Shown here: one piece after another, positions 1 to 14,285 of the stretch
Layout of the letters: the number at the start of each line of letters is the position of its first letter
Position numbering within the stretch: the stretch's first letter is position 1
DNA from: a virus
Taxonomy: Duplodnaviria; Heunggongvirae; Uroviricota; Caudoviricetes
Length of the DNA stretch: 14,762 nt
Direction: 5' to 3' (one strand)
Virus record (IMG/VR): IMGVR_UViG_2684622581_000004
Coordinates: 1-14,762 of that record
Translations under genes and position numbers: made by a program
Notes under the pieces: model-generated
Seen by the model: the letters and a program-made list of their open reading frames with translations, nothing else
What the model was told of the DNA's origin: nothing
Database searches by the model: none

Positions 1-1248
1 ATGGCACTGAATATTCCATTCAGAAATGCGTACTATCGTTTTGCATCCAGTTACTCATTTCTCTTTTTTATTTCCTGGTCGCTGTGGTGGTCGTTATACG
101 CTATTTGGCTGAAAGGACATCTAGGGTTGACAGGGACGGAATTAGGTACACTTTATTCGGTCAACCAGTTTACCAGCATTCTATTTATGATGTTCTACGG
201 CATCGTTCAGGATAAACTCGGTCTGAAGAAACCGCTCATCTGGTGTATGAGTTTCATCCTGGTCTTGACCGGACCGTTTATGATTTACGTTTATGAACCG
301 TTACTGCAAAGCAATTTTTCTGTAGGTCTAATTCTGGGGGCGCTCTTTTTTGGCCTGGGGTATCTGGCGGGATGCGGTTTGCTTGACAGCTTCACCGAAA
401 AAATGGCGCGAAATTTTCATTTCGAATATGGAACAGCGCGCGCCTGGGGATCTTTTGGCTATGCTATTGGCGCGTTCTTTGCCGGCATATTTTTTAGTAT
501 CAGTCCCCATATCAACTTCTGGTTGGTCTCGCTATTTGGCGCTGTATTTATGATGATCAACATGTGTTTTAAAGATAAGGATCACCAGTGCGTAGCGGCG
601 GATGCGGGAGGGGTAAAAAAAGAGGATTTTATCGCAGTTTTCAAGGATCGAAACTTCTGGGTTTTCGTCATATTTATTGTGGGGACGTGGTCTTTCTATA
701 ACATTTTTGATCAACAACTTTTTCCTGTCTTTTATGCAGGTTTATTCGAATCACACGATGTAGGAACGCGCCTGTATGGTTATCTCAACTCATTCCAGGT
801 GGTACTCGAAGCGCTATGCATGGCGATTATTCCTTTCTTTGTGAATCGGGTAGGGCCAAAAAATGCATTACTTATCGGTGTTGTGATTATGGCGTTGCGT
901 ATCCTTTCCTGCGCGCTGTTCGTTAACCCCTGGATTATTTCATTAGTGAAGCTGTTACATGCTATTGAGGTTCCACTTTGTGTCATATCCGTCTTCAAAT
1001 ACAGCGTGGCAAATTTTGATAAGCGCCTGTCGTCGACGATCTTTCTGATTGGTTTTCAAATTGCCAGTTCGCTTGGGATTGTGCTGCTTTCAACGCCGAC
1101 TGGGATACTCTTTGACCACGCAGGCTACCAGACAGTTTTCTTCGCAATTTCGGGTATTGTCTGCCTGATGTTGCTATTTGGTATTTTCTTCTTGAGTAAA
1201 AAACGCGAGCAAATAGTTATGGAAACGCCTGTACCTTCAGCAATATAG
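1..1248 (+). CDS. cscB: Sucrose:H+ symporter (oligosaccharide:H+ symporter, LacY family, MFS)
   Basis: 415-aa ORF, highly hydrophobic with 12-TM-like pattern; N-terminus MALNIPFRNAYYRF... matches my recollection of E. coli CscB; clear LacY-family resemblance. Stop TAG at 1246-1248. Confidence 0.85.
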   Translation: MALNIPFRNAYYRFASSYSFLFFISWSLWWSLYAIWLKGHLGLTGTELGTLYSVNQFTSILFMMFYGIVQDKLGLKKPLIWCMSFILVLTGPFMIYVYEPLLQSNFSVGLILGALFFGLGYLAGCGLLDSFTEKMARNFHFEYGTARAWGSFGYAIGAFFAGIFFSISPHINFWLVSLFGAVFMMINMCFKDKDHQCVAADAGGVKKEDFIAVFKDRNFWVFVIFIVGTWSFYNIFDQQLFPVFYAGLFESHDVGTRLYGYLNSFQVVLEALCMAIIPFFVNRVGPKNALLIGVVIMALRILSCALFVNPWIISLVKLLHAIEVPLCVISVFKYSVANFDKRLSSTIFLIGFQIASSLGIVLLSTPTGILFDHAGYQTVFFAISGIVCLMLLFGIFFLSKKREQIVMETPVPSAI

Positions 1249-1256
1249 ACGTAAAC

Positions 1257-1300
1257 TTTTCCGGTTGTTGTCGATATCTCCCTATCCCTCAACCGGAAAA
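1257..1300. repeat. 11-bp perfect inverted repeat (TTTTCCGGTTG / CAACCGGAAAA) with 22-nt loop just after cscB stop
   Basis: Read directly; no U-tract follows on either strand, so not a canonical intrinsic terminator. Confidence 0.3.
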
Positions 1301-1687
1301 TAATAATACTAAAGTGCTTAGCCCTGCTAATAATCACCTAATCCAAACGCCTCATTCATGTTCTGGTACAGTCGCTCAAATGTACTTCAGATGCGCGGTT
1401 CGCTGATTTCCAGGACATTGTCGTCATTCAGCGACCTGTCCCGTGTATCACGGTCCTGCGAATTCATCAAGGAATGCATTGCGGAGTGAAGTATCGAGTC
1501 ACGCCATATTTGCTATCAGGATTCTGTGTGATGGTTACATCGCCCGGCCCAGGGCTGTTTAGTCATCAGCGCTTTCTGACAGTGCTGAGATTTCAACCTG
1601 TTGCAGTAAAAATGAGTAGATATAAGGCAAGTGTGCTGCCAAACCTATCTTTTACGGGGTGAAGGTAGATTTCGTTTGAAGGGTATC

Positions 1688-1702
1688 TGGTGTCCCCTGC
1701 AG
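1688..1702 (-). other. Prophage attR core: copy of argW tRNA-Arg 3' end (CTGCAGGGGACACCA on minus strand)
   Basis: Minus-strand 15-mer is identical to the 3' terminal sequence of argW as I recall it; lies 73 nt beyond the torI stop; core sits inside a 7-bp inverted repeat CCCCTGC...GCAGGGG (1694-1726). Confidence 0.65.
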
Positions 1703-1759
1703 ACATCTACTTGACGCGGCAGGGGATTGATTAGAATGGTGTTTTTTAGGTGTGAGAAA

Positions 1760-1781
1760 TATTTTACCCGCTATTTTACCC
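1760..1781. repeat. Tandem direct repeat TATTTTACCC x2 (12-bp period) overlapping torI 3' end, adjacent to attR
   Basis: Read directly; position between RDF gene and att core fits arm-type/RDF binding sites (inference). Confidence 0.3.
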
Positions 1782-1976
1782 ATTGGCGCGGCTTAAGAGC
1801 TTATTTTTGAATTCACAATGGTCACGATATAACCATCTTGCTCGCCCGTGGATAACTTTGGCTTTTGGCAGGTCGCCGGACTTAATCCGGTCATAGATGA
1901 AGGTTTTACCAAAGCCAGTATCAGCCATGATGAATTTCAAATCAACTAGGGAATCAGGCTGTAGTTCGTGTTGCAT
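1776..1976 (-). CDS. torI: Excisionase-like recombination directionality factor / Tor inhibitor (AlpA-Xis family winged helix)
   Basis: 66-aa ORF MQHELQPDSLVDLKFIMADTGFGKTFIYDRIKSGDLPKAKVIHGRARWLYRDH...; matches my recollection of E. coli TorI; RBS GGAG about 9 nt upstream; last gene before attR. Confidence 0.8.
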   Translation of the reverse strand: MQHELQPDSLVDLKFIMADTGFGKTFIYDRIKSGDLPKAKVIHGRARWLYRDHCEFKNKLLSRANG

Positions 1977-1995
1977 GAGTGCTATCTCCGAATAG

Positions 1996-2011
1996 GGAAT
2001 CGAACCTGCAA
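1996..2011 (-). other. 16-nt tRNA T-arm fragment (TTGCAGGTTCGATTCC) identical to the argW segment immediately 5' of the att core
   Basis: Minus-strand 16-mer in the torI promoter region; similarity does not extend into the rest of a tRNA, so this is a fragment, not a gene. Confidence 0.4.
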
Positions 2012-2107
2012 ATCAGGTAATAAAAATACGCTCAATGACGGCGATGGTAGATCAGGATATTTTAAGAAACTGACAGGCCTCATCGAGTGTGAGGCTGTAT
2101 GGCTCTA

Positions 2108-2413
2108 TTATTTCACCTCTTGTTGTGACATTGTTGAAAAATGGATACCAGCTCGTTGCTGCCAGACGATCCAACCGAGAGTCATATCCCATGCCATGTA
2201 TTCGTTATCGCCGTTTTTTGCTCTCCGACGATCTACTAAGTCACCGAAACGCTTTTCCATGAATAATTCATAAGCTTCGCGTTCATCTAGTTCTACTTCC
2301 AGAGATAGGAGTGCGATTTCATAAGCACGGCGCTCAATATCGTCTCGCACGTCAAGGCTGCTGATACGCTCTTTAATTTCTTTAATCAGTTCTTTGTCGG
2401 TAAAAGTGGTCAT
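2108..2413 (-). CDS. yfdT: Hypothetical prophage protein (YfdT-like, 101 aa)
   Basis: ORF with GGAGG RBS; start overlaps upstream stop (TAATG); size and position match K-12 CPS-53 yfdT as I recall it. Confidence 0.55.
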   Translation of the reverse strand: MTTFTDKELIKEIKERISSLDVRDDIERRAYEIALLSLEVELDEREAYELFMEKRFGDLVDRRRAKNGDNEYMAWDMTLGWIVWQQRAGIHFSTMSQQEVK

Positions 2414-2775
2414 TATGCTCCAGCCTCCGGTGCTTTTGGCATTACTGCCCAGTGAGTGATATTGACGTTTTCAAGGTCCCCGACCTGAAATGTCCACTGC
2501 CATTCTCCGGTTTCTTTTTGCCCCCAGGTGTACCAGAGAGAACGCCAGCCAATTAGCCAGCCTTCTCCGTTAGCATCGAATAACAAAACACTTTCATTTG
2601 CTGGTGGCAGTTCAGTTGACACTGGTATTGCTTTGTTTTCCTGTGCTGCACATTTAGCTTCAAGCGCATCGAATTTGCGCACCAGGTATTCAGCATCTGT
2701 TTCATTCACTTTCAGATCTCGCGGTACACATCTCCCACGAAGAAACCCTTCCATTTCGAAAACATTCATGCGCAT
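2413..2775 (-). CDS. yfdS: DUF551-family phage protein (YfdS-like, 120 aa)
   Basis: C-terminal W-rich motif ...GWLIGWRSLWYTWGQ...NITHWAVMP typical of DUF551; GGAG RBS; overlaps upstream gene by 10 nt. Confidence 0.6.
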   Translation of the reverse strand: MRMNVFEMEGFLRGRCVPRDLKVNETDAEYLVRKFDALEAKCAAQENKAIPVSTELPPANESVLLFDANGEGWLIGWRSLWYTWGQKETGEWQWTFQVGDLENVNITHWAVMPKAPEAGA

Positions 2776-3302
2776 TTGCGTAACTCCGATAACTCGTTAA
2801 AACGTTCCATAAACATCCCGTAGGCATGGCCCGGTGCCAGTGGAATCACGTTGAACATCTCTGTTGCCGGGATGCCTTCCAGTACAGGCCAGAAAGAGCC
2901 ATCATCAAGCCCGAGATCGCGGCGTTCGGTTGCCAGCATGATGAGATCGGCATATTTCACAGGCGTGCTCATAACCGGGGGTAACCCGTATTTCTCACGG
3001 ATTACGGCGTCTATTTTTTCTTCCATCCGTTTATAGTCAGGAAGAAGGCGTTTCAGTGGCGCGGGGATGTCCTGACAATAAGCTTCTGTTGCATCATGCA
3101 TTAACGCTTCAAAAGCAAATTCCTGCGGTACCAGCTGGCTGCAAAGCACCGCATGTTGGGCGACGCTGTAGAAGTGTGAAAGATGTCCTGCAAAGCGACA
3201 GATATTTGAAAGGGAAACCGCGATATCGTTAATATCGATGTTGTCTTTATTTATCCTGTCATAATAAAAATGCTTCCCGGAAAAAGTTTTAATAAATGAC
3301 AT
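2766..3302 (-). CDS. yfdR: HD-domain phosphohydrolase (5'-deoxynucleotidase, YfdR/YfbR-like)
   Basis: HD motifs (AQHAVL...ALMHDATEAY); start chosen at internal ATG 3302-3300 with GGAGAA RBS 5 nt upstream, giving 178 aa; the longer ORF to 3365 has no RBS. Confidence 0.7.
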   Translation of the reverse strand: MSFIKTFSGKHFYYDRINKDNIDINDIAVSLSNICRFAGHLSHFYSVAQHAVLCSQLVPQEFAFEALMHDATEAYCQDIPAPLKRLLPDYKRMEEKIDAVIREKYGLPPVMSTPVKYADLIMLATERRDLGLDDGSFWPVLEGIPATEMFNVIPLAPGHAYGMFMERFNELSELRKCA

Positions 3303-3396
3303 TTTGTTCTCCACGTTATATGCGCTGCACCGCGCTGAAATTTGGTTAAAGAAAAACCTCGCCATCAGGCGATTATTGAGTCAATTACGTTTCCAT

Positions 3397-3418
3397 AAAT
3401 GCCCCCGCAGGGGCATTT
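3397..3418 (-). terminator. Perfect 9-bp stem hairpin (AAATGCCCC-cgca-GGGGCATTT) 11 nt downstream of the yfdQ-like stop
   Basis: Read directly; weak U-tract, so a terminator or RNA-processing role is uncertain. Confidence 0.25.
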
Positions 3419-3430
3419 GCAGTAATGAAA

Positions 3431-4255
3431 TCAGGCGGTGAAAGTACCAATAAAGGTTTCTACTTTGCTGTCTTTGAACTTCTCAACAAGCAGATCACGA
3501 AATTCGTTAGCCATTTCCTCCTGCACTGCTTCCAGCTGAATAATGCGTAGTACCAGTACAGGACGATCGCCAGTGATAATGCTGAGGCGTAATTTAAACG
3601 GACGTTCTTTCAGACCTTCAAACGGAACGCATTTAAATTCAAATGCCACTGGCATAATGTCTTTGGTCTTCGCTTCGACAGACTCCATCAGGGAGCGTTT
3701 GCCGCTGAAGTCATTATCTTCAAAATCAGCTGTCTGGTTCGCTTCAATTGTGATTTTACGGATCGCCGCAGCCGCTTTGGTTGCCTGAATGGCGTCACCA
3801 TTAGCATCAAAGCCCACAAGGTAGTCGGCCCAGTCTTCAATCCATTCTGCCAGTGACTTCTGGGAGTTACGCTCGCCGTTAACAGACAACAGGGCAGAGA
3901 ACGGTGCTGTCTTTTTCAGTTTGAGAGTGGCGGTGTTATCTGCGTGACCTGGTTCATCAATAGTACCCAGGTTAAGCACACTGACGGCTCGCATATTATC
4001 GGCATCGATAAAGCAGCGGGTGCCTTCATCTGCAAGATCTTTAGAATAACGGGTAAAGTCATCGATGCTGGCAGTGGAAAGCGCACCACGGAAACGGAAG
4101 CGATTTAAATTAAATTTTTCCAGATCATGAATGCGGAAATTCTCAGGCAATGCCACAGCATCGGCACCAATCTTACTGATAATTTCATTAACACCCTGAG
4201 CAGAAATAAGGGCATGGATTTGATTAATTGTGGTTGCGTCTAAGTTCTGAGACAT
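3431..4255 (-). CDS. yfdQ: DUF2303-family prophage protein (YfdQ-like, 274 aa)
   Basis: 274-aa ORF with GAGGA RBS; size and neighbourhood match K-12 yfdQ as I recall it. Confidence 0.6.
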
Positions 4256-4320
4256 AATAAGTCCTCACTATATAAAGATATTCAGTGATGAGATAAATAA
4301 TCAGTTTATTAAGAACGATA

Positions 4321-4683
4321 TTAACGACCTGCTGCGCGGAGTTTTCCGTCAGGCTCACCGGCAAGAGTCAGTAATTGTCCCTGGTCTTCCTGCAGAATAG
4401 TCAGGCGACCACCGCGATTGACATACATCGGCGTTTCGGTGGTGTCTTCTTCGGAAATTTTCCCGCGGTTAGTCGGGCGAACATATGAGAGTTTGTGTTT
4501 GATTTTCACTCGGTTCTCATCAAACGGTTCGATTTCTAGGTTGAGCGAGACCTTACCTTTGGTTCTCGTGTTCATCACACCGGAAGCGACTTCACTGAGA
4601 ACTGCGCCGATTTTGGTTTCAAATACGCCGCCGTCCAGCTCCCCGATAAATGCCTGCACATCAGTACTGCGTTCGCTAGCCAT
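4321..4683 (-). CDS. yfdP: Hypothetical prophage protein (YfdP-like, 120 aa)
   Basis: Start at ATG 4683-4681 with GAGGAG RBS 7 nt upstream; the 226-aa extension to 5001 runs through GC-rich Pro/Arg-rich sequence and is rejected. Confidence 0.55.
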   Translation of the reverse strand: MASERSTDVQAFIGELDGGVFETKIGAVLSEVASGVMNTRTKGKVSLNLEIEPFDENRVKIKHKLSYVRPTNRGKISEEDTTETPMYVNRGGRLTILQEDQGQLLTLAGEPDGKLRAAGR

Positions 4684-5151
4684 TTTGCTGCTCCTCATCA
4701 TATCGACCCTGCAAGGTCGGTTAGTTTCTCCACAAAACAGAGAAGAACACCTGCGGTGACTGCCGCCCGGATGGATTGGGTTATGAGCCCGTCGTCCGGT
4801 GATGCTCTTCTCTGTTTTGTAAAAAGGACGGTACCAGCCGGAAGCAAGGGTACAAGCTGGTACCGCCAAGACTACACACAGCATAAAGTTGTGGTGCCGG
4901 GTGCCTCCCGGTGCCTGGCGAAGGTTGCACACCAGGCGGGTGGGTATCCACAGAAGGTCGACTGTCAGCCTCAACCTTAACCCGCGTGCGCTGAGCCGCA
5001 TTCACCACAACGCTAAGGATTCTCTCTGGTTGAAAATACTTAGCTGTTATGTGCCTGCTTTTAGCCACATCAGGCGAGGTGGACCTAGTTATTCCCCAAC
5101 AACAAGGATTCGGTTAATCTGGTTATCCCCAACAACGCAAAAGGAAAAGAA
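4684..5151. other. GC-rich, hairpin-dense noncoding island (candidate structured ncRNA or cis-regulatory leader)
   Basis: No credible ORF in six frames; 15-bp perfect inverted repeat 4732-4746/4806-4820; 10-bp stem 4829-4838/4856-4865; further stems 4897-4911 and 4913-4938; direct repeats GTTATYCCCCAACAAC at 5088-5103 and 5121-5136; GC far higher than the flanking AT-rich genes. Confidence 0.45.
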
Positions 5152-5586
5152 ATGTCCGGTAATATCTATACGCTGTACAAATCCCACTGTGAAAATGTTG
5201 GAAAGTATCGGGGCATTGAAATCAGTGGGGTAGTGTCATCAGTCGAAATAAGCAAAGTTGAATCAAGGGCAACATTACTTACTCTTCTGGACCTTGTCTT
5301 ACATGAGCACCGGAAGAAATTCGGCACTCCCTATAATCAGTTGAATGGGAAAAAGGCTCTGGTTCACCTTATTCTGATGAAGCATCACTGGATGCCAAAA
5401 CAGATTAATGAGATGAAATTTGATGAACTTCTTCTTTCAATTCAGGATGAACTCACACTTGATAAAATAAGCGTAACCGCCCAGAAATTTTTAGATTATC
5501 GAGACTGGAGATCACAAATTCATCACTTTGATGATTTTGACGAAAATGAATGGGATCCTAATTTGTCTGCACAATATCTAAAGTAA
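5152..5586 (+). CDS. Orphan hypothetical protein (144 aa), AT-rich, opposite strand to the early-left operon
   Basis: ATG with AAGGA RBS 6 nt upstream; protein-like composition; no family recognised; markedly lower GC than neighbours. Confidence 0.55.
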   Translation: MSGNIYTLYKSHCENVGKYRGIEISGVVSSVEISKVESRATLLTLLDLVLHEHRKKFGTPYNQLNGKKALVHLILMKHHWMPKQINEMKFDELLLSIQDELTLDKISVTAQKFLDYRDWRSQIHHFDDFDENEWDPNLSAQYLK

Positions 5587-5764
5587 CATCCTGTGATAAA
5601 ACCGTGATTTCCTGATCCAGTTTTTTTAAGGAGTCTATTGTTTCCTGTCGATAAGACAGCACTTCACGAAGCTGGTTTATAGCTGCCAGCTTCTTTGTCA
5701 TCCACTCATAAATTTCCTCATCTGTGTAGCCAGGCGCGACGATTTTGGGTTCTGTTTTGTGCAT
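5558..5764 (-). CDS. Small acidic hypothetical protein (68 aa), first ORF downstream of PL
   Basis: ATG 5764-5762 with GAGGAG RBS at 7-nt spacing; overlaps the 3' end of the convergent 144-aa ORF by 29 nt; not Arg-rich, so not N-like. Confidence 0.5.
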   Translation of the reverse strand: MHKTEPKIVAPGYTDEEIYEWMTKKLAAINQLREVLSYRQETIDSLKKLDQEITVLSQDVTLDIVQTN

Positions 5765-5809
5765 TTCACATCTCCTCAAGTTATCAGTTACTTGTTGATG
5801 GGGACCAGA

Positions 5810-5821
5810 TTGTTAAAGAGC
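5810..5821 (-). promoter_or_regulatory. rrn-type boxA (GCTCTTTAACAA) in the PL leader; nut-like antitermination element
   Basis: Minus-strand 12-mer matches the rrn boxA core as I recall it (TGCTCTTTAACAATTTATCA); flanked by hairpins at 5824-5841 and 5776-5793. Confidence 0.5.
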
Positions 5822-5823
5822 TA

Positions 5824-5846
5824 AGCGTCCTGTAGGGCGCTTTTTT
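5824..5846 (+). terminator. Stem-loop (AGCGTCC-tgta-GGGCGCT) followed by T6: intrinsic terminator on the plus strand, or boxB-like hairpin on the leftward transcript
   Basis: 7-bp stem with one G-U pair, 4-nt loop, U-run only on the plus strand; would end the transcript of the 144-aa gene. Confidence 0.5.
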
Positions 5847-5930
5847 GTTGCTAACGAATCATCCTGGACTTCATATGCCCCAGGCGGCTACTTCGTGGGC
5901 GTCCTGCCTGTTTGTTGTTTCTCTTGGGTA

Positions 5931-5959
5931 CATTATGTATCTCAAAGGTACATTGTCAA
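5931..5959 (-). promoter_or_regulatory. Leftward early promoter PL (-35 TTGACA, 16-17 bp spacer, -10 CATAAT) overlapped by GGTACA operator half-sites
   Basis: Minus-strand hexamers read directly; GGTACA at 5927-5932 and 5947-5952 resemble the OR half-sites. Confidence 0.55.
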
Positions 5960-5998
5960 GTATAAAAAAACCTGCCGAAGCAGGTTCATAAACATTGA

Positions 5999-6673
5999 TT
6001 AGGCTTTGATTTTGTATCTTCTTGGTTTTCCTGAGAAAATCACAGTACCAATTATAGAGCAATTACCGTTGATCTTGATGTAAGGCTCAGGCCAGTTTGG
6101 GTTTAACGCTTTGAGATAACGCTGTGTCCCATCTTCTATCAACCTTTTGAAGGTGGTTTCACCTGTATCGTGCATCAATGCAATAACGTCGTCACCGTGG
6201 CAGGCAGGTACTTCAGGATCGACAAAAATCATGTCTCCCGGGCGGTACTCATCAATCATTGAATCACCTATCACCCGCAAGATATAAGTCATTTCCCCAC
6301 AGGGTACAGGGCAGGGATACGTTTCTGCTGTGCTCAAATCAACCTCAGAATATCCAACTTCTTTCCATGCTCCGGCCTGTACCCATGATATGACAGGGAC
6401 TAATGTGATTTGTTTATTAGTGATTGAAACATCAGGTTTTTTTGTGATGTTCGTTGTCTGGTGTTCTTGATCGAGCCATCCGACAGGCAGGTCGAAACAT
6501 TTTTCGATGTGTCGTGCCATGCTGTCACCGATATTTTTAGTAGCACCATCTCCCATAAACCTGCTGGTCTGGGTTGGCTCGCGATCAATCATAGTGGCAA
6601 AGGAAGAATTCCCGCCAACACCATCTCTCAGTTTTCTGGCGTTAGACCGCCGGATGTCATGGATTGTTTTCAT
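5999..6673 (-). CDS. cI: CI-like prophage repressor (N-terminal HTH, C-terminal S24 LexA-type autopeptidase)
   Basis: 224 aa; S24 catalytic Ser in VIGDSM and Lys in TFKRL; Ala-Gly candidate cleavage site (VQAGAW); divergent from a cro-like gene. Confidence 0.85.
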   Translation of the reverse strand: MKTIHDIRRSNARKLRDGVGGNSSFATMIDREPTQTSRFMGDGATKNIGDSMARHIEKCFDLPVGWLDQEHQTTNITKKPDVSITNKQITLVPVISWVQAGAWKEVGYSEVDLSTAETYPCPVPCGEMTYILRVIGDSMIDEYRPGDMIFVDPEVPACHGDDVIALMHDTGETTFKRLIEDGTQRYLKALNPNWPEPYIKINGNCSIIGTVIFSGKPRRYKIKA

Positions 6674-6688
6674 AACGAAATTAAAACC

Positions 6689-6757
6689 CTTGTACCGTTA
6701 AGGTACAAGTATCTTGAAGGTTCATTTCAATCATGTAATATGTACACCGGAGGTACA
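6689..6757. promoter_or_regulatory. OR operator region: palindrome CTTGTACC-N5-GGTACAAG (6689-6709) and palindrome TGTACA-N5-GGTACA (6741-6757)
   Basis: Perfect inverted repeats read directly, flanking and overlapping the PR hexamers. Confidence 0.6.
6714..6741 (+). promoter_or_regulatory. Rightward early promoter PR (-35 TTGAAG, 16-bp spacer, -10 TAATAT)
   Basis: Hexamers read directly, 23 nt upstream of the cro ATG; second operator overlaps -10/+1. Confidence 0.55.
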
Positions 6758-6763
6758 TATCGT

Positions 6764-6964
6764 ATGAAAGCGTATTGGGACTCTTTAACCAAAGAACAGC
6801 AGGGCGAGTTGGCCGGAAAAGTTGGCTCAACACCTGGCTACTTACGGCTGGTTTTCAATGGCTATAAAAAAGCCAGTTTTGTGCTGGCTAAAAAACTTGA
6901 GCAATGCACGTCAGGTGCAATTACGAAATCTGACTTAAGACCGGATATCTATCCGAAAGATTAG
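6764..6964 (+). CDS. cro: Cro-like small HTH regulator (66 aa)
   Basis: Divergent from cI across the operator region; GGAGG upstream; the 167-aa ORF-track version is an antisense extension into cI and is rejected. Confidence 0.6.
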   Translation: MKAYWDSLTKEQQGELAGKVGSTPGYLRLVFNGYKKASFVLAKKLEQCTSGAITKSDLRPDIYPKD

Positions 6965-6995
6965 CAGAACACTTTCAATTTTTAACCACAGAACG

Positions 6996-7559
6996 ATGAG
7001 GCTAATCGTGGGTAAGCATCACTGGAAAATAGAAAAACAGCCTGAGTGGTACGTGAAAGCTGTCAGAAAAATTATCGCGGCGTTGCCGGGTGGTTACGCT
7101 GAAGCGGCTGACTGGCTCGATGTAACAGAAAACGCTTTATTCAACCGCCTTCGTGCAGATGGCGATCAGATTTTCCCGCTGGGATGGGCAATGGTTTTAC
7201 AGCGTGCTGGTGGCACTCACTTCATTGCTGATGCTGTGGCGCAGTCTGCAAATGGCGTCTTTGTGTCTCTTCCTGACGTCGAGGATGTGGACAACGCCGA
7301 TATTAACCAGCGTCTGCTGGAAGTCATTGAACAGATCGGCAGTTATTCAAAACAGATTCGTTCAGCAATCGAAGACGGTGTAGTGGAACCGCATGAGAAG
7401 ACAGCAATTAACGACGAGTTGTACCTCTCAATTTCGAAGCTGCAGGAGCATGCAGCACTGGTCTACAAAATTTTTTGCATTTCAGAAAGTAATGACGCCC
7501 GCGAGTGTGCAGCTCCGGGCGCCGTGGCGTGTCGTGACTGTGGAGAAACTAACGCATGA
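6996..7559 (+). CDS. CII-like phage regulatory protein (putative; YdaT/CP76-like)
   Basis: Position immediately after cro; 187-aa ORF; alternative GTG start at 7008 has a better RBS (GAGG); family assignment is from weak recollection. Confidence 0.4.
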
Positions 7560-7894
7560 ACAGTTTAACAACACACTACCGTCGCTCGCAACTGATTGCG
7601 CTTCCTGTACCGGGTGGAAAAGCGAAGGTGGAGTATTGCTATGCAGTGAATGTACCAGGTGACAGGGAAATTGTAACCCACAGCTTTGCAGAGTGGGCTG
7701 TGGGTGATTTCAACCGGCAGAAGGAGACAGTCCTTTGCGACAAGTTAACCGCTGGTTCAAAGATCACTACGGAGTGCCCGTCAGAGTCATTCGTTGGGAG
7801 CCGGAAACACAACGGGTTATCTACCTCCGTGAAGGCTATGAGCATGAGTGCTTCAGCCCGCTCGAACAGTTTCGTCGTAAATTCAGGGAAATAG
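7556..7894 (+). CDS. Hypothetical protein, apparently frame-disrupted (frame changes at about 7705-7740)
   Basis: ATG overlaps upstream stop (ATGA) with GGAGAA RBS; N-terminal 60 aa look protein-like, the C-terminal part is Ser-rich junk, while the -1 frame from TTG 7734 (AAGGAG RBS) to 7914 gives a good globular sequence. Confidence 0.3.
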
Positions 7895-7903
7895 AGGTCG
7901 GTC

Positions 7904-8845
7904 ATGAGCACTAAATTAACCGGCTATGTATGGGATGGTTGCGCTGCGTCAGGCATGAAATTATCCAGCGTGGCAATTATGGCCCGCCTGGCTGATTTCA
8001 GTAATGACGAAGGTGTGTGCTGGCCATCAATTGAAACCATTGCCCGTCAGATTGGCGCGGGGATGAGTACCGTCAGAACGGCTATCGCACGGCTGGAAGC
8101 AGAAGGCTGGTTAACGCGTAAGGCGCGTCGCCAGGGTAACCGCAATGCGTCGAATGTTTATCAGCTTAACGTTGCGAAGCTTCAGGCAGCGGCATTTTCT
8201 CAACTGTCAGATTCTGACCCGTCAAAATCTGATGCATCAAAATCTGACCCGTCAAAATTTGATGCGTCGAAATCTGGCAAAAAAGCGGGTTTTCACCCGT
8301 CAGAATCTGGCGGGGATCCGTCAGTAAAATCAAAACATGATCCGTCAGATAAAAAAACTTCTCGTCCGGACGCTTCGCAACCGGACACGCAGACGGCTGA
8401 ACAGGAGTTTTTAACTCGCCATCCTGATGCGGTTGTATTCAGCCCTAAAAAGCGCCAGTGGGGAACGCAGGATGATTTGACCTGCGCACAGTGGCTCTGG
8501 AAAAAAATCATCGCCCTGTACGAGCAGGCCGCCGAATGTGACGGCGAGGTGGTTCGTCCCAAAGAACCGAACTGGACAGCCTGGGCAAACGAAATTCGCC
8601 TGATGTGTGTGCAGGATGGTCGTACTCACAAACAAATCTGCGAGATGTACAGCCGCGTCAGCCGCGATCCGTTCTGGTGCCGTAACGTGCTCAGCCCGTC
8701 GAAGCTGCGGGAAAAATGGGATGAGCTTTCCCTGCGCTTATCGCCGTCCGTCAGCACGCACACAGAAAAACGTGAAGACCCGTACTTCAAAGCCAGTTAC
8801 GACAATGTGGACTACAGCCAGATCCCGGCAGGATTCAGGGGGTGA
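7904..8845 (+). CDS. Replication initiator (lambda O-like, N-terminal winged HTH) with internal iteron origin
   Basis: 313 aa; AGAGG RBS; N-terminal HTH-like region; central low-complexity DPSKSDASKS repeats encoded by DNA iterons. Confidence 0.65.
   Translation: MSTKLTGYVWDGCAASGMKLSSVAIMARLADFSNDEGVCWPSIETIARQIGAGMSTVRTAIARLEAEGWLTRKARRQGNRNASNVYQLNVAKLQAAAFSQLSDSDPSKSDASKSDPSKFDASKSGKKAGFHPSESGGDPSVKSKHDPSDKKTSRPDASQPDTQTAEQEFLTRHPDAVVFSPKKRQWGTQDDLTCAQWLWKKIIALYEQAAECDGEVVRPKEPNWTAWANEIRLMCVQDGRTHKQICEMYSRVSRDPFWCRNVLSPSKLREKWDELSLRLSPSVSTHTEKREDPYFKASYDNVDYSQIPAGFRG
8213..8357 (+). repeat. Iteron array (candidate ori): two 30-bp tandem repeats plus further CCGTCAG copies, followed by an A-rich tract
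   Basis: TCTGACCCGTCAAAATCTGATGCATCAAAA at 8213-8242 and near-identical copy at 8243-8272; CCGTCA core at 8219, 8249, 8296, 8318, 8342. Confidence 0.6.
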
Positions 8846-9336
8846 TTATGAGTCTTTTGAATGAAGTTCAGAAATTCATTGAAGCCCATCCTGGGTGTAC
8901 TTCCGGAGACATTGCTGATGCTTTTGCAGGTTACTCACGGCAGCGCGTTCTGCAGTCAGCAAGCAAGTTACGTCAGAGTGGGCGTGTGGCTCACCGTTGT
9001 GAAGGGGATACACGCAGACATTTCCCGCGCCAGACAAAGATATCGCCGGAGGCGGAACGGCAACCAGTTCGTGAAACCAGACCTGTGCGCAATTTCTATG
9101 TCGGCACTAACGATCACCGGGTGATTTTGTGCCTGACCCGCCAGGCTGAAGAACTGGAGTCAAGGGGCTTATACCGTCGTGCTGCAACCGTGTGGATGGC
9201 GGCATTCCGTGAAAGCCACTCCCAGCCAGAACGAAACAATTTTCTGGCGCGTCGTGAGCGGTGCTTACGGAAAAGCAGCAAGCGCGCTGCATCGGGTGAA
9301 GAGTGGTATCTGTCAGGGAATTACGTGGGGGCTTAA
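8842..9336 (+). CDS. yfdN: PerC-family-like transcriptional regulator (YfdN-like, 164 aa from GTG; alternative ATG at 8848)
   Basis: Motif RQAEELESRGLYRRAATVWMAA resembles the PerC/Pch signature; overlaps the upstream stop; size matches K-12 yfdN as I recall it. Confidence 0.5.
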   Translation: MIMSLLNEVQKFIEAHPGCTSGDIADAFAGYSRQRVLQSASKLRQSGRVAHRCEGDTRRHFPRQTKISPEAERQPVRETRPVRNFYVGTNDHRVILCLTRQAEELESRGLYRRAATVWMAAFRESHSQPERNNFLARRERCLRKSSKRAASGEEWYLSGNYVGA

Positions 9337-9989
9337 TGAGTAATAAATATTGTCAGGCGCTGGTGGAACTGCGGAACAAACCAGCCCATGAACTGAAGGA
9401 AGTGGGCGATCAGTGGCGCACGCCGGATAACATTTTCTGGGGAATTAACACCCTGTTTGGTCCGTTTGTTCTGGATCTGTTCACTGACGGTGATAACGCC
9501 AAATGTGCCGCGTATTACACGGCGGAAGACAACGCGCTGGCGCATGACTGGTCAGAACGTCTTGCGGAGCTTAAAGGTGCTGCCTTTGGTAATCCCCCAT
9601 ACAGCCGCGCCAGTCAGCATGAGGGGCAATACATCACCGGCATGCGTTACATCATGAAGCATGCCAGTGCCATGCGTGATAAAGGCGGGCGCTATGTTTT
9701 CCTGATCAAAGCTGCCACCAGCGAAGTGTGGTGGCCGGAAGATGCAGATCATATTGCTTTTATTCGCGGGCGTATTGGTTTTGAACTGCCTGCCTGGTTT
9801 ATCCCGAAGGATGAGAAGCAGGTGCCGACAGGCGCTTTCTTCGCTGGTGCTATTGCTGTTTTCGACAAGACCTGGAAGGGACCGGCAATCAGCTACATCG
9901 GGCGCGATGAACTTGAGGCATGTGGTGAGGCGTTTCTGGCGCAGGTTCGCCAGCAGGCGGAAAAACTGGTCAGGGAGATGGCGGCATGA
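9336..9989 (+). CDS. Phage N6-adenine DNA methyltransferase (Dam-like, orphan)
   Basis: Catalytic NPPY motif (FGNPPYSR); start at ATG 9336 overlapping the upstream stop (TAATG); no adjacent restriction endonuclease. Confidence 0.8.
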   Translation: MSNKYCQALVELRNKPAHELKEVGDQWRTPDNIFWGINTLFGPFVLDLFTDGDNAKCAAYYTAEDNALAHDWSERLAELKGAAFGNPPYSRASQHEGQYITGMRYIMKHASAMRDKGGRYVFLIKAATSEVWWPEDADHIAFIRGRIGFELPAWFIPKDEKQVPTGAFFAGAIAVFDKTWKGPAISYIGRDELEACGEAFLAQVRQQAEKLVREMAA

Positions 9990-10312
9990 CGACGTTAACT
10001 CAATGCCAGCAGCAGGTGCTGGATATGCTGATTTCTTACCAGAAAGAACGTGGCTTTCCGCCAACCAATCAGGAGGTGGCAACCATGCTGGGATACCGTT
10101 CAGTGAATGCAGCAGTGGAGCATCTTCGCGCACTGGAGAAAAAAGGCGTCATCACGATAAAGCGTGGCGTGGCCCGGGGGATAACGCTTCATACCGCGGT
10201 GAAGGCCGACGACAGCGAGGCGGTCGAGATTATCCGCGCACTGCTTGCCGGTGAGGAAAACGGCAGGCTGCGTGCAGCCCACTGGTTACATGAGAGGGGC
10301 CTGAAAGTATGA
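9986..10312 (+). CDS. LexA N-terminal DNA-binding-domain-like protein (no S24 peptidase domain)
   Basis: 108 aa; strong resemblance to the LexA winged-helix DBD (QQQVLDMLISYQKERGFPPT...LRALEKKGVI); ATGA overlap with the MTase stop. Confidence 0.6.
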   Translation: MTTLTQCQQQVLDMLISYQKERGFPPTNQEVATMLGYRSVNAAVEHLRALEKKGVITIKRGVARGITLHTAVKADDSEAVEIIRALLAGEENGRLRAAHWLHERGLKV

Positions 10313-10698
10313 AGCTGAACCTGCCTTTTCCGCCCAGCGTGAACACGTACTGGCGACACCCCAACAAAGGGGCGTTTGCTGGTAAGAGCCTGATAAGCGC
10401 GGCGGGGCGAAAATTCCAGAGCGCGGCGTGCGCAGCAATAGTTGAGCAGTTACGTCGTCTGCCGAAACCAACGTCGGCACCTGCTTCAGTGGAGATCGTG
10501 TTGTTTCCTCCGGATAACCGGATCCGCGATCTGGACAACTATAACAAGGCGCTGTTTGACGCCCTGACCCACGCGGGTGTGTGGGAAGACGACAGTCAGG
10601 TGAAAAGAATGCTGGTGGAGTGGGGACCGGTTATCCCGGAAGGGAAGGTCGAGATCACTATCAGTAAGTACGAGAAAACGGCGGGTGCAGCCGCCTGA
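10309..10698 (+). CDS. rusA: Holliday junction resolvase RusA
   Basis: 129 aa with RusA-like N-terminus (LPFPPSVNTYWRH) and DLDNYNKALFDALT motif; ATGA overlap with upstream gene. Confidence 0.8.
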   Translation: MKLNLPFPPSVNTYWRHPNKGAFAGKSLISAAGRKFQSAACAAIVEQLRRLPKPTSAPASVEIVLFPPDNRIRDLDNYNKALFDALTHAGVWEDDSQVKRMLVEWGPVIPEGKVEITISKYEKTAGAAA

Positions 10699-10717
10699 TC
10701 AAGAGGAGAAACGAAGT

Positions 10718-11515
10718 ATGAATAATCTGATGGTCATTGATGGTATTGAAGTTCGTCGTGATGCTTTTGGGCGTTACAGCCTGAACGATCTGCACAGGGC
10801 TGCCGGTTCTCTGGATAAGCATAAGCCTGCATTCTGGCTCCGCAATGAGCAAACTGAACGTTTAATAAGCGAGTTGCAGATTTGCAACTCGGTCAATATA
10901 GAGCCAGTTAACGTTATTCGTGGCGGAAATAACCAGGGGACGTATGTCTGCAAAGAACTGGTGTATGCCTATGCAATGTGGATCAGCCCGTCATTCCATC
11001 TGAAGGTGATCCGTACTTTCGACATGGTAACCAGTGCACCGGAAAAATTATCCGGACAGGCTGCTGACAAGATGCAGGCTGGTGTGATTCTGCTGGACTT
11101 TATGCGCCGGGAATTAAACCTGTCTAACTCTTCAGTGCTTGGTGCCTGTCAGAAACTCCAGGAGGCTGTTGGCTTACCGAATCTGGCACCGCGCTATGCC
11201 ATTGATGCTCCTGCTGACGCGCCTGATGGCTCAAGCCGCCCCACGCTGTCACTGAGTGCACTGCTGAAGCAGTATGGTATCCGCCTGACAGCTAATCAGG
11301 CATATCACCAGATGGTGAAGCTGGGGATCGTCGAGCAGCGAGAACGGTACAGCCGTACCACGATTAACAACATCAAAAAATTCTGGTCGCTGACAGCGAA
11401 AGGCTGCATGTTCGGCAAGAATATCACCAGTCCCGCAAATCCGCGCGAGACGCAGCCGCATTTCTTCGAATCCCGATTCCCTGAGCTGTTAAAGCTGCTC
11501 GATACCGTTCATTGA
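10718..11515 (+). CDS. KilA-N domain protein (antirepressor-like)
   Basis: N-terminal KilA-N signature (IDGIEVRRDAFGRYSLNDLHRAAG...FWLRN); start at ATG 10718 with AGGAG RBS rather than the RBS-less 10685. Confidence 0.7.
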   Translation: MNNLMVIDGIEVRRDAFGRYSLNDLHRAAGSLDKHKPAFWLRNEQTERLISELQICNSVNIEPVNVIRGGNNQGTYVCKELVYAYAMWISPSFHLKVIRTFDMVTSAPEKLSGQAADKMQAGVILLDFMRRELNLSNSSVLGACQKLQEAVGLPNLAPRYAIDAPADAPDGSSRPTLSLSALLKQYGIRLTANQAYHQMVKLGIVEQRERYSRTTINNIKKFWSLTAKGCMFGKNITSPANPRETQPHFFESRFPELLKLLDTVH

Positions 11516-11516
11516 G

Positions 11517-12512
11517 GTGACCGTGAGAGCACTACTGACCCCTGAAATTGCCCCGCGTATGGGGATCGTATTGTTCAGGCCAGGTTCAGAGTTGATGCCC
11601 CTGTTTATGCAGAGGCGTGTCCTGCTGGAGCCTGAGCCGGAACGTTATTCATCTTTCGCCAGTGGTGCCGTTCCGGCGGCATCACAACCGCTGGCGGATG
11701 ATCCTGCCGTTCGGGCCGTGTTCCGCAATGAGGCAGTGATCCGTCGTGCTGGTGGCGTGGAATGTCTTGAAAGCTGGTTACTTCGTGAAAAAGGCTGCCA
11801 GTGGCCTCATTCCGACTGGCACAGCGAGAACATGACAACAATGCGACACGCTCCGGGCGCAATCCGTTTGTGCTGGCACTGCGATAACCAGCTGCGCGAT
11901 CAGTTCACGGAACGGCTGGAATCAATGGCAACGGATAACTGTGCCCGCTGGGTGTTGTCTGTTGTGCGTCGGGATCTCGGTTTTGATGATAGTCACGTTG
12001 TGACAATGCCGGAACTGTGCTGGTGGCTGATTCGTAATGACCTGGCGGATGCCTTACCGGAAAGTGCAGCCCGTAAGGCACTGAGATTACCGAAGCCTGT
12101 TGTGCAGGCGGTCACCCGGGAAAGTGACCTTGTGCCTTCGGTTCCTGCCACCAGCATTATCCAGGATAAAGCGAAAAAGGTGCTGGCGCTGAAAGTGGAT
12201 CCGGAGTCGCCGGAGTCTTTTATGTTACGCCCAAAACGTCGCCGCTGGGTTAATGAAAAGTACACGCGCTGGGTTAAGACACAGCCGTGTGCATGTTGTG
12301 GAAAGCTTGCTGATGATCCCCACCACCTGATAGGTCACGGTCAGGGTGGAATGGGAACAAAAGCGCATGACCTCTTTGTGTTGCCTTTGTGCAGAAAGCA
12401 TCACGACGAGCTGCATGCGGATACCGTGGCATTTGAAGAGAAGTATGGCTCCCAGCTGGAGCTGATATTTCGTTTTATCGATCGTGCGCTGGCAATAGGC
12501 GTACTGGCGTAA
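11517..12512 (+). CDS. DUF968-family protein with C-terminal Cys/His (HNH-like) motif
   Basis: C-terminal CACCG...HHLIGHGQGGMGTKAHD...LPLCRKHHDELH; GTG start with overlapping GAGG; start codon uncertain. Confidence 0.55.
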   Translation: MTVRALLTPEIAPRMGIVLFRPGSELMPLFMQRRVLLEPEPERYSSFASGAVPAASQPLADDPAVRAVFRNEAVIRRAGGVECLESWLLREKGCQWPHSDWHSENMTTMRHAPGAIRLCWHCDNQLRDQFTERLESMATDNCARWVLSVVRRDLGFDDSHVVTMPELCWWLIRNDLADALPESAARKALRLPKPVVQAVTRESDLVPSVPATSIIQDKAKKVLALKVDPESPESFMLRPKRRRWVNEKYTRWVKTQPCACCGKLADDPHHLIGHGQGGMGTKAHDLFVLPLCRKHHDELHADTVAFEEKYGSQLELIFRFIDRALAIGVLA

Positions 12513-12525
12513 GTGGAGAACGAGC

Positions 12526-13278
12526 ATGAACCTTGAAGCCTTACCGAAATATTACTCCCCAAAATCTCCAAAATTGAGTGATGACGCACCGGCGACAGGC
12601 TCTGGTGGTTTAACAATTACGGATGTGATTGCTGCGCAGGGGATGGTGCAGTCGAAAGCACCGCTTGGGTTTGCCTTATTCCTGGCAAAAGTTGGTGTTC
12701 AGGATCCTCAGTTTGCGATTGAAGGTCTGCTCAATTACGCGATGGCACTGGATAACCCGACATTGAATAAATTGAGTGAAGAAACCCGGCTACAGATTAT
12801 TCCTTACCTTGTGAATTTTGCCTTTGCTGATTATTCCAGGTCTGCGGCAAGTAAGGCTCGCTGTGAGCATTGTGCTGGTAATGGATTTCATAATGTATTG
12901 CGCGAAGTGGTGAAACACTCCAGAAGCGGGGAATCTGTTATCAAGGAAGAGTGGGTGAAGGAACTATGTCAGCATTGTCATGGTAAGGGAGAAGTCAGCA
13001 CAGCGTGCAGAGGGTGTAAGGGTAAAGGTATTGTCCTGGATGAAAAAAGGACCCGGCTTCATGGCACGCCTGTTTATAAGATTTGTGGGCGTTGCAATGG
13101 AAACCGGTTTAGCCGTTTACCAACCACACTGGCGCGGCATCATGTCCAGAAGCTGGTACCAGATCTGACGGATTATCAGTGGTACAAAGGATATGCAGAT
13201 GTCATTGATAAACTGGTGACAAAGTGCTGGCAGGAAGAAGCATATGCTGAGGCGCAATTAAGAAAAGTGACGAGATAA
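12526..13278 (+). CDS. Late-gene antitermination protein Q
   Basis: 250 aa with multiple CxxC zinc-binding pairs (CEHCAGNG, CQHCHGKG, CRGCKGKG, CGRCNGN); sits directly upstream of a late promoter/terminator and the lysis genes; GGAGAA RBS. Confidence 0.7.
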   Translation: MNLEALPKYYSPKSPKLSDDAPATGSGGLTITDVIAAQGMVQSKAPLGFALFLAKVGVQDPQFAIEGLLNYAMALDNPTLNKLSEETRLQIIPYLVNFAFADYSRSAASKARCEHCAGNGFHNVLREVVKHSRSGESVIKEEWVKELCQHCHGKGEVSTACRGCKGKGIVLDEKRTRLHGTPVYKICGRCNGNRFSRLPTTLARHHVQKLVPDLTDYQWYKGYADVIDKLVTKCWQEEAYAEAQLRKVTR

Positions 13279-13309
13279 ATGATTTTCGCCGAAGATAGTG
13301 ACATGATTC

Positions 13310-13338
13310 TTGCATTTTTCAAAAGATCTGGTTAGGAT
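13310..13338 (+). promoter_or_regulatory. Candidate late promoter PR' (-35 TTGCAT, 17-bp spacer, -10 TAGGAT)
   Basis: Hexamers read directly, 32 nt after the Q stop and upstream of a terminator. Confidence 0.4.
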
Positions 13339-13384
13339 TCTCCTAACGATGGGCTTTGTGTGTCTACCATTGATAATCTTCAAG

Positions 13385-13408
13385 AAACCGCCACCGAGCG
13401 GTTTTTTA
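13385..13408 (+). terminator. Candidate tR' intrinsic terminator (AAACCGC-caccga-GCGGTTT + T-run)
   Basis: 7-bp stem followed by TTTTTTATT; placed where Q-dependent antitermination would act. Confidence 0.45.
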
Positions 13409-13566
13409 TTGATGTCAATTGTGTTTTTAAGGCTCTCCTTCCTTAAAGTGTGTTGTACAAAAAACTGGCAGCCAGCTACGCTCATTTTGAAAAAGTGACA
13501 CCCTTCAATGTTTCTTTTGAATGGAATTGCTACCCATAAATCTCTATCAAAAACAGGAGAGCATAT

Positions 13567-13809
13567 ATGGTGGAGCGTTGTTCTGTTTGTGAGCAGTCAT
13601 TAAGTTATTCACGAGAAGTTGAACAAGATGGCGTTGAATATAAATCTTGCCCAAAATGTTCTGCTGATGCCGGAGTGCACGTTTTTTATAAAACAATAGA
13701 CTTTGGTTATAGGGATATGGGAGACGGAAGGCATATCGTTCAGTCATGGTGTCCGGCTTGTCGTTCTGGTGAAAAACCTTCTATACCACCAGCATTTAAA
13801 TGTTGTTAA
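13567..13809 (+). CDS. Small zinc-ribbon protein (80 aa, CxxC pairs); moron between tR' and the lysis cassette
   Basis: AGGAGA RBS 7 nt upstream of ATG; CSVC...CPKC...CPAC motifs; own terminator downstream. Confidence 0.55.
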   Translation: MVERCSVCEQSLSYSREVEQDGVEYKSCPKCSADAGVHVFYKTIDFGYRDMGDGRHIVQSWCPACRSGEKPSIPPAFKCC

Positions 13810-13828
13810 CTCAATGAATTATAAAAAG

Positions 13829-13853
13829 AGGCTGCCTGTGGGCGGCCTTTTTT
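13829..13853 (+). terminator. Intrinsic terminator (AGGCTGCC-tgtg-GGCGGCCT + T6)
   Basis: 8-bp stem with one G-U pair, followed by TTTTTTG; directly after the zinc-ribbon ORF. Confidence 0.6.
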
Positions 13854-13940
13854 GTGCACTACGCAACTTTTGCGACTCAGCGCTATAACCAGCTTCTTTC
13901 CCTTCACTCGTTGCACTTCCGATAACCGGAGGTGGGAATT

Positions 13941-14282
13941 ATGAAAATGCATAACGATCCTCATTCCTGGTCTGACTTACTTGAATTGTTACAGAGCTGG
14001 TGGCGTGGAGACACACCGTTGGGCGCAGTAATTATGTCGATCGTTATGGCTGGCTTGCGCATTGCCTATTTTGGCGGTGGTGGTGGCTGGAAGCGAAAAA
14101 CGCTCGAGATTTTGCTCTGTGGCGCTCTGACTCTGACTTTTGCATCCGCTCTTGAGTATGTCGGATGGCCTAAATCTCTTTCTGTTGCCATTGGTGGCGG
14201 CGTTGGGCTGATCGGGGTCGATGCTATTCGTGGGGCTGCAATGCGAGTAATCGGTAACAAATTTGGTAGCTCGAAGGAGTAA
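13941..14282 (+). CDS. S: Holin (lambda S-like class I, dual-start MKM)
   Basis: GGAGGTGGG RBS then ATG-AAA-ATG; hydrophobic TM-like segments; immediately upstream of endolysin; the GTG at 13932 from the ORF track is rejected. Confidence 0.75.
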   Translation: MKMHNDPHSWSDLLELLQSWWRGDTPLGAVIMSIVMAGLRIAYFGGGGGWKRKTLEILLCGALTLTFASALEYVGWPKSLSVAIGGGVGLIGVDAIRGAAMRVIGNKFGSSKE

Positions 14283-14285
14283 TTT

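Follow-up and report, generated by a model that had tools for sequence, protein, structure and literature searches.

The stretch of DNA analysed here, referred to as the window, comprises positions 1 to 14,762 (14,762 nucleotides, nt) of the Caudoviricetes record IMGVR_UViG_2684622581_000004 in IMG/VR, and it carries attR, one end of a prophage integrated at the tRNA gene argW. Judged by sequence comparison, window 1688–2026 is the right-hand part (attR, P arm and the gene for the recombination directionality factor, RDF) of the known IntS/TorI module of KplE1, HK620 and Sf6 at argW. Nothing is new about the attR core, torI or the arm repeats, which are ordinary parts of that module. The interest of the locus is confined to a second, displaced piece of a tRNA T arm at 1996–2011, upstream of torI, a modest new observation on top of the known module. 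On the evidence of the sequences compared below, this piece is a fixed and old component of the module and not an accident of this genome. The features of the locus are given here one per line.

1996–2011, minus strand: displaced T-arm fragment TTGCAGGTTCGATTCC (5' T-stem plus T-loop), recognised by its identity with argW and its conservation across lineages.
1986–1989, minus strand: Shine-Dalgarno sequence GGAG of torI, read from the sequence.
1776–1976, minus strand: torI (homologue of hkaC), an open reading frame (ORF) for a 66-residue RDF, annotated as TorI in RefSeq relatives.
2019–2043, minus strand: decayed hairpin plus T-tract directly upstream of the fragment, assessed by fold energy, with the edge of the shared module at about 2026.
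1760–1781, minus strand: two tandem copies of GGGTAAAAT(A), putative IntS arm-type sites of the P arm, from the HK620 annotation and comparison of repeats.
1719–1726, no strand assigned: inner arm of the 8-nt inverted repeat TCCCCTGC/GCAGGGGA, whose partner (1693–1700) is inside the core, confirmed in the sequence.
1702–1710, minus strand: putative phage-side core half-site C (GTAGATGTC), dyad partner of GACACC, from co-variation with the C'/B' half-site GAC(A/G)CC.
1688–1702, minus strand: attR core, the displaced last 15 nt of argW (CTGCAGGGGACACCA), from the argW match and the HK620 and Sf6 annotation.
1250–1687, minus strand: host chromosomal DNA following argW, on the bacterial side of attR, from the match to E. 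coli with an unoccupied site, in a register identical to genome L003.

The argW sequence used for comparison was taken from an unoccupied-site genome (L003, 1941–2015), where ARAGORN calls a tRNA-Arg (CCT) with the 3' end ...GGGCTAATTGCAGGTTCGATTCCTGCAGGGGACACCA; it agrees with the argW sequence given in the sequence-only reading that had first pointed to the locus. Window 1688–1702 reads TGGTGTCCCCTGCAG on the plus strand, and its minus strand is identical to the last 15 nt of argW (15/15). Window 1996–2011 reads GGAATCGAACCTGCAA on the plus strand, and its minus strand corresponds to argW nt 46–61, the 16 nt preceding the core. The two strings are adjacent in argW, where they overlap by 1 nt (one common C), and in the window they lie on one strand and in the order of the tRNA with 293 nt between them (1703–1995), torI being inside this interval. 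Each string is unique in the window; shuffled sequences gave on average 0.17 and 0.29 matches, respectively, with up to 3 mismatches allowed, and by our own arithmetic about 7e-6 exact occurrences of a 16-mer would be expected in 2 x 14.8 kb. The argW sequence of the sequence-only reading was right: the strings are contiguous in the real gene, the 16-mer is the segment directly 5' of the core, and the two pieces represent the 3' portion of the tRNA split around torI.

For the survey of conservation, loci of TorI homologues were gathered in viral contigs and in a single genome of each species, with queries of differing divergence, yielding 286 torI-like ORFs and 106 unique upstream regions. The conserved core of the fragment is CAGGTTCGATTCC (window 1996–2008), an 11–13-nt motif that can be written as (CA)GGTTCGATT(C/T)CC. 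With at most two mismatches allowed, 71 of the 106 upstream regions have GGTTCGATTCC at about position -30 relative to the start codon, and the motif-bearing lineages include those of E. coli, Serratia, Citrobacter-type, Pantoea, Edwardsiella and Erwinia phages. Among 17 lineage representatives the columns of the motif are 80–100% identical and those of the flanks 30–50%, the Shine-Dalgarno sequence being the only other conserved block of the leader. The 16-mer is identical in KplE1 of K-12, HK620 and Sf6, and its exact form is kept in 174 of 187 sampled E. coli-type copies. That related prophages carry the same fragment upstream of torI is thus observed for K-12, HK620, Sf6 and many genera.

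The order of elements in the leader is constant: hairpin plus T-tract, ATTGCCTG..., motif, 4–14 nt, GGAG and start codon. By our own count, 7 nt separate the motif from GAG(A/G)T in 11 of the 17 lineages, a spacing equal to the length of the overlap region described below, but the ribosome-binding site explains the same block and we do not rely on this coincidence. Tandem copies of the motif are present in Midgardsormr-like phages (L004, L127, L128 and L131) with a 16-nt period and in L124 with a 13-nt period, and these periods fit neither the 10-nt nor the 20-nt phasing of TorI sites. L125 and L126 have a motif which is one G shorter (CAGTTCGAT) and a large clade carries GATTTCC instead. Identity with argW is extended on the 5' side to TTG only in the E. 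coli lineage, and on the 3' side by TG in Serratia and Pantoea, a pattern in the sequences that suggests an ancestral tRNA-like stretch of at least 18 nt, eroded at its edges. Since the motif accompanies the module in unrelated phage backbones, a binding partner is expected to come from the module itself or from the host.

In HK620 and Sf6, the hairpin that precedes the motif is a strong intrinsic terminator (-13 kcal/mol, z -3.6); in the window and K-12 it is at chance level (-2.8 kcal/mol). Because the terminator has decayed in the window/K-12 lineage, torI may rely more on other silencing there. Transcripts of KplE1 are reportedly subject to Rho-dependent termination, as cited at second hand in other papers. 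In the viral contig L419, the RDF is very divergent (MRELRDDSLIDMKFMIEDAGF...) and the arm repeats are different (GGGCATA), the core being of the same argW type; its leader of terminator, motif and Shine-Dalgarno sequence is that of L205 and L206. From this arrangement the leader appears to have been exchanged as a unit with the joint at the start codon.

Two further short matches were seen in the window. A 9-nt direct repeat, TAGGGAATC, occurs at 1947–1955 and 1993–2001, one copy being the 3' end of the motif and the other torI codons 8–10; it was rejected as meaningful since about 0.4 such pairs are expected by chance and it arises from window-specific synonymous codons in which K-12 and HK620 differ. 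The T-loop-like 11-mer GGTTCGATTTC (4526–4536, plus strand, inside an ORF) has one mismatch and is also at chance level (0.72 expected).

Among the matches listed for the exact 16-mer in viral contigs, 63 of 152 lie upstream of torI-like genes. Most of the others belong to tRNA T arms (Arg-CCT 17, Arg-TCT 12, Thr-TGT 9, Arg-ACG 7, Met 6, Lys 5, among others), and some are in fragments of tRNA ends. The 16-mer is not diagnostic of argW and is a common T-arm variant, so that the refuting circumstance named in the sequence-only reading, a string shared by many tRNAs, applies in part. That the 16-mer comes from the same tRNA, as proposed there, is therefore deduced from context. We infer descent from argW because the motif adjoins the argW core and because the target tRNA keeps the T arm in Edwardsiella-type hosts. 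The tRNA-Arg(CCU) of these hosts has the same T arm and is consequently uninformative on whether the motif tracks the host tRNA.

An older att remnant, also proposed in that reading, is reasonable as an origin, yet simple integration geometry does not yield the arrangement and long-term conservation does not fit a mere remnant. By reasoning only, tandem integration, integration at a displaced or phage-borne tRNA and aberrant excision were each rejected, since they would leave half-site B of the tRNA (defined below) beside the overlap, the P' arm and intS, not beside torI. A multi-step history is possible. Since the fragment is under long-term conservation, we regard it as more than a scar. A decayed tRNA gene was also rejected: ARAGORN found 0 genes in the window, and Rfam gave no tRNA match at E-values up to 10 in the window and 13 lineage loci. 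The arrangement was not generalised to L310 and L317, where a T-arm fragment is followed by a Shine-Dalgarno sequence and ATG; these are large phages with tRNA arrays and the fragment is probably a tRNA pseudogene.

The part of the window that resembles HK620, Sf6 and many prophages of E. coli is exactly 1688–2026, and the match to KplE1 of K-12 reaches further (1688–2450). The homologous stretch of HK620 and Sf6 is annotated as attP core, attP repeats and hkaC or gene 18, which is TorI, and conservation of the module in HK620, Sf6 and CUS-3 has been described (PMC2951348). TorI of the window is 100% identical to E. coli copies, and its gene lies immediately inside attR in the orientation of the tRNA. 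Leader, torI and P arm of KplE1 in K-12 are nearly base-for-base those of the window, the 16-mer included, and RefSeq annotates nothing at this fragment in KplE1 of K-12. The closest relative in full context is E. coli C7 (98% identity, same csc flank, prophage of about 41 kb). Its far end, attL, has argW intact and carries intS and a P' arm with five TorI-type sites, all oriented as torI; the attL belonging to the window itself lies outside it.

Core, putative arm-type repeats, TorI and leader are thus the same as in the module of KplE1 (CPS-53), HK620 and Sf6, the leader being as in K-12, and so is the layout, with argW, attL and intS at one end and torI and attR at the other in one orientation (the far end as seen in C7). 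In comparison to KplE1, the recombination module is no different, whereas the backbone is lambdoid here (an early region encoding a CI-like repressor, an O-like replication protein and a CII-like activator, the last at 6996–7559 and assigned to phrog_101, fills the rest of the window) and KplE1 is a 10-kb remnant. The host flanks also differ, being the csc sucrose locus here and dsdC in K-12. The csc side of attR includes a cscB-like oligosaccharide permease of the major facilitator superfamily at window 1–1248 (plus strand), and one attB therefore has differing downstream neighbours among E. coli lineages.

Window 1250–1702 is the native flank downstream of argW, collinear with unoccupied-site genomes at about 98% identity, and a tRNA-Arg is annotated in those genomes under the end of the match. 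The argW match and this collinearity bear out the assignment of 1688–1702 as attR core of a prophage at argW; the naming of torI as the adjacent RDF gene was correct as well. Strand exchange within the last 15 nt of the tRNA would have left the displaced original tRNA end at 1688–1702, beside the host flank. The homologous 16 bp are annotated as attP core in the HK620 and Sf6 records, and the KplE1 core has been given as CTGCAGGGGACACCAT (PMC2951348).

For comparison of cores, 93 unique core regions were reduced to 57 representatives. In these, an invariant TGCAGGG has GA(T/C)GT(C/A) as its neighbour towards the phage and GAC(A/G)CC at the opposite end, and the two variable positions are associated (T/A 65, C/G 14, C/A 7, T/G 3), both arms being altered in Edwardsiella (GGCGTA...AACGCC). 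Overlap regions between inverted half-sites are the usual layout of tyrosine recombinases. Because of the dyad co-variation around TGCAGGG, we place a putative 7-bp overlap at 1695–1701 between imperfect inverted half-sites, of which the host-side one would be GACACC at 1689–1694. The tRNA-side half-site B of attB is, on the same sequence comparison, probably TTCGATTCC (T-loop plus CC). At the position of the phage-side half-site, most other lineages carry the T-loop-like TTCGATGTA.

When tyrosine integrases use tRNA 3' ends as att sites, the copy of the tRNA end in attP restores the gene upon integration. The present system resembles such sites in that its core is the tRNA 3' end, the tRNA is regenerated at attL (seen in C7) and the phage-side half-site is T-loop-like in most lineages. 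It differs in having a second, non-contiguous piece of tRNA 293 nt inside the element and beyond the RDF gene, and in the conservation of this piece independently of the crossover site.

The inverted repeat claimed around the core is present, conserved and co-varying. The columns of its inner arm are invariant in an alignment of seven phages, and across lineages it changes together with the core and the target tRNA (CCCCTAC/GTAGGGG in Rouxiella, TCCCTGC/GCAGGGA in Edwardsiella). This co-variation suggests that the repeat is functional, and its 18-bp spacing misfits a simple core dyad. An hkaB-like ORF of 43 residues (phrog_18701; 1652–1783, minus strand) starts within the 3' end of torI and extends through arm sites and attR core as far as the host DNA; it would span attP in the circular phage, so that integration would change its C-terminus.

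The pair of TATTTTACCC repeats at 1760–1769 and 1772–1781 lies between the stop codon of the RDF gene and the core. They match the attP repeats of the HK620 record, which are annotated on both arms, and GGGTAAAA/TTTTACCC repeats are also present on the P' arm beside int; the tandem repeats of the P arm are invariant across seven phages. Five TorI sites have been mapped on attL, in the P' arm, with cores GTTCG, GATCG and GTCCG (PMC2951348), and their equivalents could be located in both HK620 and C7, where the spacing is 20 nt and 10 nt as published. Since the published TorI sites are on attL and the HK620 repeats on both arms, the TATTTTACCC repeats are probably arm-type sites of IntS and not RDF sites. 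Of the two roles suggested in the sequence-only reading for these repeats, which are real, the integrase role is the one favoured by the comparison and the RDF role is not.

The explanation that accounts best for the whole, and which we hold with moderate confidence, is that a conserved, tRNA-derived T-arm piece belongs to the IntS/TorI module and is kept as a cis-element acting on RDF expression. The motif would descend from the T arm of a tRNA-Arg(CCU)-type gene, and selection would have kept it as a putative DNA-level element modulating expression of the RDF gene. In this phage family RDF expression decides excision, and the main excision control has been proposed to act on the RDF gene, whose promoter PtorI is described as 'non-characterized' (PMC2951348). 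No record of an earlier characterisation of the displaced T-arm piece was found in the literature searched. The possibility that the motif is part of a functional attR was rejected, as the 135-bp attR used in vitro ends at the primer CTCTTAAGCCGCGCCAATGG, at about window 1779–1798 (PMC3509656); the motif is therefore not required for the recombination reaction.

The leading candidate for a binder is, speculatively, IntS through its core-binding domain, the motif serving as a mimic of half-site B. Window 1996–2004 (TTCGATTCC) is identical to the putative half-site B at 9/9 positions and GGTTCGATTCC at 11/11, and IntS is considered because it is the only protein expected to recognise TTCGATTCC here. 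Such binding might couple occupancy by the integrase to the output of RDF. The logic would be the same as in PintS autoregulation at attL, where sites for recombination proteins double as operators of recombination genes (PMC2951348); arm-type and TorI sites are mapped there, whereas the torI leader has a lone candidate core-type half-site. That the T-loop half-site is a working operator which gates RDF expression and is bound by a module-encoded protein, most plausibly IntS, is thus offered as a tentative proposal of low probability.

Several observations weigh against a conserved cis-element of this kind. Isolated core half-sites are bound weakly by tyrosine integrases, and the motif is a lone half-site with no overlap-region homology alongside. 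Many related modules are without it (the Chronis, EhrS49 and MELREDT/MEIREDT types), and L015, L233, L234 and L237 look like clean deletions of the motif. Several GATTTCC lineages depart from the tRNA at the invariant C61, and with five different point variants in the E. coli population the constraint is less than absolute. As the lineages are related, their conservation does not amount to independent observations. Descent from argW specifically is unprovable, as the exact 16-mer is common to many tRNAs.

Four other explanations were weighed. That the fragment is a functionless scar, an old att site or a recombination joint at a generic T-loop which persists through the kinship of the lineages and its own shortness, we consider unlikely. 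It is situated at the edge of an exchangeable module, in an area which the Sf6 record annotates as 'boundary sequence', it is dispensable in many lineages and for excision in vitro (PMC3509656), strings of this T-arm type are common in tRNAs and att sites generally, and the leader of L419 was swapped as a unit at the start codon. However, in 17 lineages of several genera the motif has stayed at 80–100% column identity next to flanks which diverged to 30–50%, its distance to the Shine-Dalgarno sequence and start codon is fixed, it was duplicated in tandem at least twice independently, and simple integration or excision geometry does not put half-site B beside the RDF gene. Alternatively, the 16-mer could belong to a CII-activated 'pI' promoter, in which CII would bind TTGC repeats (the second of them within the 16-mer) and transcription would start near the torI start codon, providing integrase without RDF when lysogeny is established. 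We regard this as quite improbable, even though the HK620 record annotates a 'phage integration' promoter at 1664–1702 with a cII-binding site (TTGCCTGATTTGC), Sf6 has a homologous 'possible integrase expression promoter', and the prophage in the window encodes the CII-like activator mentioned above. Sites of the lambda type have the two repeats spaced by N6. The HK620 site is TTGC-N5-TTGC, and the first repeat is TTAC (TTAC-N5-TTGC) in the window, K-12 and about a quarter of the E. coli copies; motif-bearing lineages of Edwardsiella, Pantoea, Erwinia and Serratia have no TTGC repeats at all. The conserved part would, moreover, be a promoter spacer, which is normally free to vary, and with int 40 kb from torI in the prophage such a promoter could serve only the circular form of the phage. 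A scan for sigma-70-like hexamer pairs gave no candidate in the window or HK620, and by eye we saw no match to the sigma-54 or sigma-E consensus, by our own reasoning. In comparison to lambda pI, what is shared is the position at the start of a xis-like gene, annotated likewise by the HK620 authors, and what differs is that the TTGC repeats are mis-spaced and lack conservation, and that hexamers are not recognisable.

An action at the level of RNA, in which AUUYCC pairs with the Shine-Dalgarno sequence GGAGRU and lowers torI translation, or the transcript mimics a tRNA T arm, seems to us very doubtful. RNAalifold finds AUUYCC/GGAGRU as the only helix, but its consensus energy is only -3.4 kcal/mol with essentially no covariation, and no lineage beats composition-matched shuffles. 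Lineages with GAUUUCC can form a clean 6-bp hairpin, in which the probability that the Shine-Dalgarno sequence is unpaired is 0.00–0.03, and this sequence is generally less accessible in motif-bearing than in motif-less leaders. In E. coli, by contrast, the motif is not paired with it, and in Edwardsiella self-folding of the motif leaves it open (0.88). A full T-arm-like hairpin is possible in Edwardsiella and Serratia; the window leader nevertheless folds no better than shuffles (z = +1.1), no lineage matches a tRNA model and ARAGORN detects nothing. A T-arm mimic or shared RNA fold was rejected on the z-value of the window, the weak consensus fold and the accessibility that is inconsistent between lineages. 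Least credible of all is an operator of TorI itself, with the RDF binding the T-loop GTTCG for autoregulation, and it is further weakened by a position weight matrix built from 34 TorI sites of seven lineages. The motif does contain GTTCG, a published site core (PMC2951348), and TorI already represses intS; direct repeats are typical of RDF sites, some phages carry the motif in duplicate, and CAGTTCGAT of L125 and L126 is nearer to the site consensus. In the matrix, however, GTTCG is followed by C (26) or T (8) and never by A, and mostly preceded by A, whereas in the motif it is invariably preceded by G and followed by A. It scores -4 to 0 bits, compared to at least 9 for real sites, and falls below many chance occurrences of GTTCG in the window. 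The conserved ATTYCC would be left unexplained, and the 16- and 13-nt tandem periods differ from the 10 and 20 nt between attL sites.

A conserved cis-element therefore stays our preferred reading of the T-arm piece. Apart from the motif and the ribosome-binding site, no non-coding block upstream of the RDF gene is conserved across genera, and the motif thus offers a concrete and inexpensive target for mutagenesis in E. coli K-12. If it is not functional, it would be a harmless evolutionary relic. If it is functional, a fragment of the target tRNA gene would have been captured by the phage and re-used as a regulatory site, and should the operator proposal be true, it would supply the missing control point of excision for the large family of argW-type prophages.

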